Source: Escherichia phage MirsaeidiM_Esher1. From it: a stretch of DNA of 64,000 nucleotides. The stretch lies in sequence record PQ438048.1. The stretch is one strand, 5' to 3'. This document shows, in pieces, positions 31,485-32,715 of this stretch (position 1 is the stretch's first letter; each line of letters starts with the position of its first letter). A program made the translations under genes and the position numbers. A model generated the notes under the pieces. That model was not told the origin of the DNA. It worked only from the letters and a program-made list of their open reading frames with translations, and did no database searches.

Positions 31485-31753
31485 CAAGTTTTGAAAGTAA
31501 CTTCGTTACCGCTTGGGAAGCTTGGGATGAAATGGGTGTTGGGGAACTTTATTTTTACAATGTAACACTACGCCCAGAGTATGCTTACTTGGTACCAGAA
31601 AGTACAGTTCAAATTGGCATGTATTTGTCTTCTCAAGACGGTGTTGTTCAATTTGAGTTTTATTCAAACACAACGGACAACGAATTTACATATCGTGCAT
31701 TTCATGTCACCATGTCTTTAGGAGAGGAGAAATTTTATGACGACCAAGTTTAA
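31463..31753 (+). CDS. hypothetical protein (96 aa)
   Basis: GAGGAGG RBS. Confidence 0.6.
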   Translation: MAEFGSVTSFESNFVTAWEAWDEMGVGELYFYNVTLRPEYAYLVPESTVQIGMYLSSQDGVVQFEFYSNTTDNEFTYRAFHVTMSLGEEKFYDDQV

Positions 31754-31934
31754 AACAGTAGAAGAAGCCGTAAAAGCAGCTTATGATGCTTTAGCGGAAG
31801 CAGAGCAGTTAGCAGACGAGACTGGTAAAGGTTTCCGTTTCTCCCCTGAATATGGGATGGGTGGTTATTATGATCCAGAAGACGAAAATGAGAACACTGG
31901 AACAAATTGGCATCCATCTTCTTTAAGTTGTTAA
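31737..31934 (+). CDS. small acidic protein, paralog family with C-terminal W-x-SS-x-C motif (copy 1)
   Basis: Ends ...GTNWHPSSLSC; GGAGAGGAG RBS. Confidence 0.55.
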   Translation: MTTKFKTVEEAVKAAYDALAEAEQLADETGKGFRFSPEYGMGGYYDPEDENENTGTNWHPSSLSC

Positions 31935-31945
31935 TAGGAGGTAAA

Positions 31946-32215
31946 GTGGGAATCGAAGATATCAAAGGTTATAAACCGCATACCGATGACAAAATTGGTA
32001 AAGTGAATGCTATTAAAGATGCTGAAGTTCGATTAGGATTAATCTTTGATGCTCTAATGTCTGAATTGTGGGCTGAACTGGATGATTGTGAAGATTTGGA
32101 AGAGTCTACCAATATATCCACCCGCCTTGACCAAATTTCAATAGCAAAGACTAAGTTGAAAGAAGCTTCTATGTGGGCCTGTCGTTCCGTTTTCCAACCA
32201 GAGGAGAAATACTAA
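31946..32215 (+). CDS. hypothetical acidic protein (89 aa)
   Basis: GTG start 4 nt after AGGAGG. Confidence 0.5.
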   Translation: MGIEDIKGYKPHTDDKIGKVNAIKDAEVRLGLIFDALMSELWAELDDCEDLEESTNISTRLDQISIAKTKLKEASMWACRSVFQPEEKY

Positions 32216-32433
32216 TGAGTGATCGTAATGTTGAAGAATTAACTGAAAAAGCCCAAGCTATTATGGCTTTAGTGGACGAACTTACAAAAGAAGCTGAAGA
32301 TGCTGGTTTTGGTCTTAGTTTAGAAAATGACGCAATCTGTTTTGAAGATTGGCAATCCTCTTCTTGTTATGGTGAAGGTGATGATGGTTTCGTCGTTAAT
32401 TCTCAAGGCGTTTGGCACAGTAGTAGCTGTTAA
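32215..32433 (+). CDS. small acidic protein, paralog family with C-terminal W-x-SS-x-C motif (copy 2)
   Basis: Ends ...QGVWHSSSC; ATG after GAGGAG, TAATG overlap. Confidence 0.55.
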   Translation: MSDRNVEELTEKAQAIMALVDELTKEAEDAGFGLSLENDAICFEDWQSSSCYGEGDDGFVVNSQGVWHSSSC

Positions 32434-32442
32434 GGAGAGATT

Positions 32443-32715
32443 GTGGAGTCTGAAGGCGAACTGCTGATAAAAAAGAAAGTTAAAGAGATGGAACAAGCAC
32501 AAAGAAAGTTTCGTAAGGAGATTGAAGAACTTTGTGAACAGTTTCAGGAACAAGCTTGGATAGGTGACTACGGTAACGGAGAAACTTATTACCCTACAGG
32601 AACGCCAGCCGCAGATCACTATATTGATTTCATTTGTGAAGATTATGGTGTAGAGTTGGATGAAAATGGTTTAACCACAAGAGGTGTTTGGATCTCTTCT
32701 TCCTCAATGTGTTAG
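32443..32715 (+). CDS. small acidic protein, paralog family with C-terminal W-x-SS-x-C motif (copy 3)
   Basis: Ends ...RGVWISSSSMC; GTG start after AAGGAGAG. Confidence 0.5.
   Translation: MESEGELLIKKKVKEMEQAQRKFRKEIEELCEQFQEQAWIGDYGNGETYYPTGTPAADHYIDFICEDYGVELDENGLTTRGVWISSSSMC

Follow-up and report, generated by a model that had tools for sequence, protein, structure and literature searches.

Why should several small acidic proteins, encoded close together in a phage genome, all end in the same short tail of tryptophan, serine and cysteine? The question is raised by three open reading frames (ORFs) of Escherichia phage MirsaeidiM_Esher1 (sequence record PQ438048.1), of which one stretch of 64,000 nucleotides (nt), hereafter the window, was analysed. 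The original prediction, made from this DNA alone, had described the three ORFs as tandem paralogs, otherwise divergent, whose conserved C-terminus could be a shared targeting, modification or binding tag. The ORFs belong to a large protein family whose genes lie, across large lytic phages, almost always just upstream of a single nucleotidyltransferase gene, and we tentatively favour a role for the tail as the site at which that enzyme docks or acts.

A phage protein family defined by its C-terminal tail

ORF1 (31737-31934, +; 65 amino acids (aa), isoelectric point (pI) 4.3), ORF2 (32215-32433, +; 72 aa, pI 4.05) and ORF3 (32443-32715, +; 90 aa, pI 4.4, with a GTG start) end in ...TNWHPSSLSC, ...GVWHSSSC and ...GVWISSSSMC, respectively, as had been predicted, and all three correspond to annotated coding sequences of the near-identical phage anhysbys. 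Each matches PHROG 899 up to the C-terminal end of the profile (E values 2e-12, 1.4e-5 and 5e-14 for ORF1 to ORF3), which bears out their description as paralogs. Alignment over their full length reveals an N-terminal helix, a Y-G-x-G loop (EYGMGG in ORF1, CYGEGD in ORF2, DYGNGE in ORF3), an acidic linker and the tail, so that the Gly-rich, acidic and aromatic segment noted earlier before each tail is real and, at the level of the family, corresponds to a Y-G-(M/N/E)-G loop that is conserved and leads into an acidic linker. ORF1 is a canonical member, comprising the helix, EYGMGGYYDP, the acidic linker and W-H-P-S-S-L-S-C before the stop, and ORF3 contains DYGNGETYYPTG. The tails of ORF1 (WHPSSLSC, 31908-31931, +; Cys seven residues after the Trp, or W+7) and ORF3 (WISSSSMC, 32689-32712, +) are of a long class, and that of ORF2 (WHSSSC, 32413-32430, +; Cys at W+5) is of a short one. 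A six-frame scan of the window placed the motif in credible coding frames only within these three ORFs, but uncovered a second, internal copy in ORF2 (WQSSSC, 32350-32367, +), directly before and fused to the YGEG loop. Orthologs of this double-motif type occur in 29 loci, including T4-like phages, and why the type carries two copies is explained by none of the models considered here.

Scans of the three ORFs against Pfam, NCBIfam and PADLOC gave no significant match, and none of the three matched the Acb2, Tad1 or Tad2 families. PDB sequences were searched with each protein singly and with the profile of the family, and the matches were confined to designed proteins or helical ones of a generic kind. 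The family itself is extensive: when 1.84 billion representatives were searched exhaustively with the profile, at least 465 clusters (50% identity) were recovered at E≤1e-3, and a word-indexed search recovered 128 relatives. Among 140 new representatives the tail stood at the extreme C-terminus in 138, a Cys end was present in 132 and the Y-G-x-G loop in 127. Members are acidic (median pI 4.35), mostly 60-150 aa long, and are built from a helix at the N-terminus, a YG(M/N)GG loop and a tail that reads W-x-x-S-S-x-x-C in most and W-x-x-S-x-C in a minority; the consensus is ‘...EAEKIADE.G..F.F..AYGMGGTYYP’, an acidic linker and ‘GW.SSS..C’. Some long members have extra N-terminal domains, among which a Pfam scan identified only one, a WYL_2 domain. 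The term ‘otherwise divergent’ was too strong, since the proteins have a helix, a YG.G loop and a predicted fold in common and 217 of 235 tailed ORFs join one similarity cluster. At least five or six paralog types recur across phage families, and the types of ORF1, ORF2 and ORF3 are all also found in T4-like phages; ORF3-type proteins alone were detected by tblastn in 415 records of a survey of 50,697 phage records. These comparisons identify the three ORFs as genuine genes and as paralogs within a large family of small, acidic alpha/beta proteins that is restricted to phages.

Conservation culminates in the tail, for which statistics were compiled from 489 distinct proteins. The residue at W+3 is Ser in 482 of 482 and that at W+4 is Ser in about 93-97%, the Cys stands at W+7 in 402 proteins and at W+5 in 62, and the chain ends on Cys in 469 of 481 (97%). 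This terminal Cys is the sole Cys in 143 of 248 members. The most conserved alignment columns, in ORF1 numbering, are Y39, G40, G42, W58, S61, S62 and C65, and no basic residue is found among the near-invariant columns. Off-pattern members exist: one of three paralogs in an Acinetobacter T4-like phage (locus L146, 3030-3206) ends in ...VWHNSNWSNSES, has lost the terminal Cys and may be a decaying copy, and a further variant (locus L077, 4262-4480) ends in ...WYSSSEAWTPSGCSY.

Resemblance of the three tails by chance, or through recent duplication of the last few codons at the nucleotide level, was also considered. The Ser codons differ among the tails (TCT TCT in ORF1, AGT AGT AGC in ORF2, TCT TCT TCC TCA in ORF3), and across 219 distinct tails the invariant Ser is written with all six codons (149 TCN and 70 AGY), so the similarity is held at the level of the protein rather than copied as DNA, which indicates that selection acts on the protein sequence of the tail. 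The motif is moreover retained by orthologs in hundreds of clusters, so that neither absence from orthologs nor a codon-level duplication, the two findings named at the outset as fatal to the idea of a shared motif, was borne out. Nothing was found in favour of chance or duplication, and we regard this explanation as refuted.

Genetic coupling to a nucleotidyltransferase

The next gene downstream of ORF3, on the same strand, starts at 32806, 3′ of the end of ORF3 at 32715, and encodes a 313-aa nucleotidyltransferase with the Pfam domains DUF7277 and DUF7275 (32806-33747, +). Eighty viral loci were collected by means of this enzyme (41-77% identity in the best-matching segment), and tailed ORFs of at least 45 aa were counted within 5 kb of it, equivalent to about 390 kb of DNA per side. 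One to six tailed ORFs were present in 73 of the 80 loci; 209 lay upstream of the enzyme gene on the same strand, one lay downstream and none was on the other strand, and the median gap between tailed ORF and enzyme gene was 343 nt. Such a distribution also speaks against chance resemblance of the tails. The reverse test, starting from a degenerate DNA pattern for YGMGGxYxP, located the enzyme just downstream in 34 of the 35 tailed loci whose sequence reached far enough in that direction. When all co-directional ORFs of the loci were clustered, the tailed ORFs formed the only families common across lineages. An example is the RB69-like phage PhAPEC2, in which three tailed paralogs (ending in ...GAWVSSSALC, ...GGWVASSHTC and ...QGWVSSSYSC) are arranged in the same way with respect to an enzyme homologue of 318 aa.

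Across the 50,697 phage records the enzyme was present in 714, and the numbers of records with the enzyme and with an ORF3-type protein ran closely together by genus (Escherichia 259 and 250, Klebsiella 35 and 34, Enterobacter 36 and 34, Shigella 18 and 18). A scan of 185,579 species genomes of bacteria and archaea yielded five matches only, all on contigs of metagenome-assembled genomes, and the cassette is therefore essentially restricted to phages. A single enzyme gene preceded by one to six tailed paralogs makes up the cassette, whose carriers are Phapecoctavirus, T4-like and jumbo phages as well as other large lytic phages. The family and this one nucleotidyltransferase are thus genetically coupled whichever of them the search starts from, and the polarity of the arrangement is fixed.

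This coupling bears on the suggestion that the tail targets the proteins to the virion. In T4, the capsid-targeting sequence of internal proteins is an N-terminal element removed by the prohead protease, and there is a formal similarity in that a short common terminal motif is borne by several small, fast-evolving phage proteins. The motif described here is C-terminal, and its conserved partner is a nucleotidyltransferase rather than a head or protease gene. The tailed genes have non-structural neighbours and sigma-70-like promoters in front of them, and a literature search gave no proteomic detection of these proteins. We saw no sign of targeting to the virion and consider it very improbable.

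A MenT-like enzyme with an additional conserved domain

More than 2,200 homologues of the 313-aa enzyme were found. In their alignment G5-S6, D26-x-D28 and E70 are invariant, and conservation reaches 95% or more at about 60 positions, most of them within the C-terminal domain. The predicted structure is of high confidence (predicted local distance difference test (pLDDT) 92.6), has a MenT-like three-dimensional fold, and has MenT1, TglT, LnuA, MenT4 and ANT(2'') as its best structural neighbours, MenT1 being the best by two methods. The likeness is one of fold: a sequence-profile search of the PDB with the enzyme alignment matched no solved chain, MenT1 included, the NCBIfam and PADLOC collections gave no match, and Pfam returned only DUF7277 and DUF7275 and not DUF1814/MenT. 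Based on the fold neighbours together with the invariant G-S, D-x-D and E residues, the protein is predicted to be a MenT/ANT-type nucleotidyltransferase of the Pol-beta fold with a large extra conserved domain, which by sequence belongs to no named family.

Enzymes from loci without tailed ORFs, compared with the rest in search of residues that might bind the tail, differ only at D182, Y198 and W271, and in one lineage only, which is too little to point to such residues. A loop spanning residues 157-181 (window about 33274-33348), with the pattern YxYxHPxL...FF..D...Y, is almost invariant, yet has the lowest pLDDT of the model (71-78), which suggests a mobile substrate-binding loop. In a clade of short enzymes (250-263 aa; L144 3848-4938, L145 3812-4896, L147 3878-5039) the gene directly downstream is a conserved one of 97-121 aa ending in ...EVKPVQKxITxY; comparison of this gene with the tailed family indicated no relation (hhalign probability 0.1).

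The structural match raises the possibility that the small proteins are inhibitors or regulators, which bind, block or tune an enzyme whose real substrate lies elsewhere, for example tRNA 3′ ends. In the MenAT1 system of Mycobacterium tuberculosis, MenA1 is a mostly helical protein of 68 aa that is encoded immediately upstream of MenT1 and blocks its active site (PMC10435456). The gene order, the size of the small proteins and their long N-terminal helix are the same in the phage cassette, and the strong acidity of the family is a property common in nucleic-acid mimics. The analogy weakens on closer comparison. The MenA1 helix alone suffices and its C-terminus is dispensable (PMC10435456), whereas here it is the C-terminal Ser and Cys that are most conserved. 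No similarity of sequence or structure links the small proteins to MenA1, nor are they related to the COG5340 antitoxins MenA3 and MenA4. A single inhibitor is enough for MenT1, as many as six divergent paralogs per enzyme are hard to justify if all serve as inhibitors, the enzyme occurs without them in part of its loci, and other genes, or in this window a terminator-like site, often intervene between the tailed ORFs and the enzyme gene. The phage enzyme has no sequence-level match to MenT1, from which it differs in its classical G-S...D-x-D...E motif and in an extra, very conserved C-terminal domain of 200 aa. In contrast to MenAT1, the cassette is confined to phage contigs and is not seen on bacterial chromosomes. 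Inhibition of this kind is the main competitor of the reading preferred below, and we judge it unlikely.

Predicted fold of the small proteins and the role of the tail

The AlphaFold2 model of ORF1 is compact (pLDDT 92.6), with a helix at residues 8-29 and strands at 33-35, 43-45 and 58-60. W58 falls within the last strand and forms one small sheet with the YGMGG loop, and confidence drops over the last five residues (mean pLDDT 77), in keeping with an exposed tail. The tail Trp is thus predicted to be a structural residue of a strand rather than part of a free tag. This modifies the earlier idea of a shared tag: a modification or binding element would best fit the near-obligate synteny with a nucleotidyltransferase, but a free tag does not agree with the modelled position of the Trp.

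We posit that the enzyme docks on the tail or modifies it, a reading that we prefer while giving it somewhat less than even confidence. Enzymes of the Pol-beta nucleotidyltransferase fold are known to transfer nucleoside monophosphate (NMP) to hydroxyl groups, and the sole invariant hydroxyl of the small proteins is that of the tail Ser, which makes O-nucleotidylylation of this Ser the most likely form of such an interaction. A Trp buried in the last beta-strand would set the position of a short exposed Ser-Ser...Cys-COOH tail, and this tail would be the handle by which each paralog meets the nucleotidyltransferase. The enzyme could then transfer NMP onto the hydroxyl of the invariant Ser, and nucleotidylylation might arm or regulate a set of small effectors for host takeover or counter-defence. 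Invariant tail residues that are nucleophiles rather than typical binding anchors lend support to modification, and several divergent paralogs per single enzyme fit an arrangement of many substrates for one enzyme.

There are parallels for the central idea. Pol-beta-fold nucleotidyltransferases of MntA-HepT (a type VII toxin-antitoxin system) and GlnD-PII nucleotidylylate Tyr residues of their HEPN RNase or PII partners; the NMP acceptor is a hydroxyl in a protein genetically linked to the enzyme, as it would be in the phage system. The candidate acceptors differ, being here Ser residues of a C-terminal tail in acidic proteins of 60-150 aa whose fold is distinct from HEPN and which lack HEPN or PII features and any Pfam domain. 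LnuA and ANT(2'') are antibiotic nucleotidyltransferases that act on hydroxyl groups; ANT(2'')-Ia and LnuA have small-molecule substrates and no dedicated partner proteins, and the phage enzyme is about twice as long.

The arrangement also recalls ribosomally synthesized and post-translationally modified peptides (RiPPs), in which several precursors may be served by one enzyme, as in lanthipeptides, including those with C-terminal S-x-x-C motifs that form aminovinyl-cysteine (AviCys). Common to both are tandem small genes beside one enzyme and an invariant Ser and Cys close together at the extreme C-terminus. In contrast to leader-plus-core peptides, the small phage proteins are predicted to be folded domains; no enzymes of the LanB, LanM, LanKC or LanD type and no radical-SAM enzymes were found in the neighbourhood, and no NCBIfam RiPP model matched. 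An AviCys-like S-x-x-C motif as such was weakened as a candidate by the spacing from Ser to Cys, which is not constant, the Cys standing at W+5 or W+7.

A bolder proposal, which we hold to be possible rather than probable, is that the cassette constitutes an unrecognised post-translational modification system of phages that nucleotidylylates the invariant tail Ser of an array of small folded effectors. In its most radical version the Ser-O-NMP would leave and the terminal Cys thiol would attack the resulting dehydroalanine to close a small thioether ring, so that nucleotidylylation would drive the formation of a lanthionine-like crosslink on proteins that are already folded domains. Thus modified, the proteins would go on to act on targets in the host during takeover or counter-defence.

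Several points weigh against assigning the tail to the enzyme in this way. Contact between the small proteins and the enzyme, the modification itself and the biological role are steps that we infer. About 9% of the enzyme loci hold no tailed ORF within 5 kb, and the short enzyme clade of Streptomyces, Gordonia and Vibrio phages has none at all. In the window, terminator- and promoter-like sites separate the small ORFs from the enzyme gene. The internal motif of ORF2 implies that not every copy needs a free carboxylate, a hint that the motif may be structural or bind a ligand. A simple model of Ser nucleotidylylation leaves the invariant Cys without a role. Furthermore, MenT1, the best structural match, has tRNA as its substrate, and its small upstream partner inhibits the enzyme instead of serving it.

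The tail might instead function independently of the enzyme, either with the YG.G loop as a site for a ligand, metal or host target or as an oligomerisation element, the enzyme being a neighbour in the same pathway. The predicted placement of W58 and the YGMGG loop in one small sheet, and the prospect that Y39, G40, G42, W58, S61, S62 and C65 could form one surface, are in line with this, as is the internal copy in ORF2; an anti-defence gene inserted in the array (see below) is consistent with a counter-defence neighbourhood. Such a role leaves unexplained why Cys is so regularly the very last residue and why synteny with one enzyme is near-obligate and polar across unrelated phage lineages. 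Conserved basic residues are lacking, which argues against binding of a nucleotide signal, and with a single Cys in most of the members examined, most could not form a metal or disulfide site within one molecule. The specific candidate of a nucleotide sponge was weakened likewise by the strong acidity of the proteins and the lack of a basic near-invariant column. Overall we consider a tail unconnected with the enzyme improbable.

Alternatively, the small proteins could be specificity adaptors, each docking on the enzyme through the common tail and recruiting a different substrate through its variable body. That one enzyme is accompanied by several paralog types, which are themselves conserved across phage families, and that some long members carry extra N-terminal domains, WYL_2 in one case, would suit adaptors. 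The bodies are tiny and have a common core, however, and invariant nucleophilic residues are atypical of pure docking peptides, so that this proposal appears quite unlikely compared with docking or modification of the tail by the enzyme.

The literature search returned no paper on the family, the tail motif, DUF7275 or DUF7277. Its components resemble known kinds, either a nucleotidyltransferase accompanied by a small protein encoded upstream or an enzyme whose protein substrates are tagged. As far as this search shows, their combination is undescribed: folded acidic paralogs that occur in arrays, have an invariant Trp/Ser/Cys tail at the terminus and are restricted to large lytic phages.

Genomic context of the array

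The region from 30300 to 34200 is 98.6-99.5% identical to phAPEC8-like phages (Phapecoctavirus, Stephanstirmvirinae), and sequence identity assigns the whole window to a phAPEC8-like Phapecoctavirus. Two records with other host labels, MG065650.1 (‘Campylobacter phage B15’) and OP562383.1 (‘Acinetobacter phage vB_AbaM_ABPW7’), are >99% identical here to E. coli phAPEC8-like phages, and their labels look doubtful for this reason.

ORF1, ORF2 and ORF3 form a closely spaced block with a fourth gene that is not of the family. This gene, with a GTG start (31946-32215, +), encodes a homologue of Acb2 (T4 Vs.4), with 78% identity to T4 Vs.4 and a match to the Acb2/Tad1 hairpin domain (PF24729, E 1.4e-19); we take T4 Vs.4 to be the sponge Acb2 that counters the cyclic oligonucleotide-based antiphage signalling system (CBASS). 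Its stop codon overlaps the start of ORF2 (TAATG), and an ORF at 31463-31753 overlaps the start of ORF1. In the related locus L003 the three paralogs are contiguous with no Acb2 gene between them, and the gene is therefore an insertion rather than part of the module, and looks like an insertion into a hotspot of accessory genes. The T4 genes vs.3 and vs.5, which flank Acb2 in that phage, are not members of the tailed family.

Consensus scanning of the sequence downstream of ORF3 identified a hairpin resembling an intrinsic terminator (AACCCGC-TTCG-GCGGGTT followed by a T run; 32724-32746, +), a candidate for the end of the small-ORF operon. Directly after it, and 5′ of the nucleotidyltransferase gene, the same kind of scan placed a candidate sigma-70-like promoter (TTGACA, a 17-nt spacer, TAAACT and an extended -10 TG; 32747-32775, +).

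The genes around the tailed ORFs are non-structural and include PhoH-like, methyltransferase, phosphatase, DprA-like and Sir2-like genes. The DprA-like protein (PHROG 768, E 2e-62; 30401-30982, +) is encoded just 5′ of the array, the methyltransferases and the Sir2-like gene are more distant, and accessory, non-structural genes extend in one long block across the region. The gene at 29342-30085 (+) encodes a lambda/NinI-like Ser/Thr protein phosphatase, and a phosphatase of this type lies at most 5 kb from the nucleotidyltransferase in 17 of 81 loci (e.g. L018, 7545-8288), which fall into two unrelated lineages, Phapecoctavirus-like phages and jumbo phages; this phosphatase might remove a modification or be a mere neighbour. 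Beginning 2 nt past the nucleotidyltransferase stop, a 131-aa ORF (33749-34144, +) belongs to PHROG 16551, of unknown function, and is not kept beside the enzyme in other lineages.

Implications

The cassette is common, its carriers including RB69-like and other T4-like phages, phAPEC8-like phages that are therapeutic candidates, and jumbo phages; every one of its components is nevertheless annotated as ‘hypothetical’. A nearly universal Cys end beside an invariant Ser is unusual for fast-evolving phage accessory genes and provides a simple and strong experimental handle. If the enzyme modifies the tails, the cassette would represent a new class of phage protein modification together with a new family of small effectors. 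Should the small proteins instead act as inhibitors, the cassette would be related to the MenAT toxin-antitoxin modules, but carried by phages and unusual in its layout of multiple inhibitors. Either outcome would provide a role for two Pfam domains of this kind, DUF7275 and DUF7277, and for one large PHROG.

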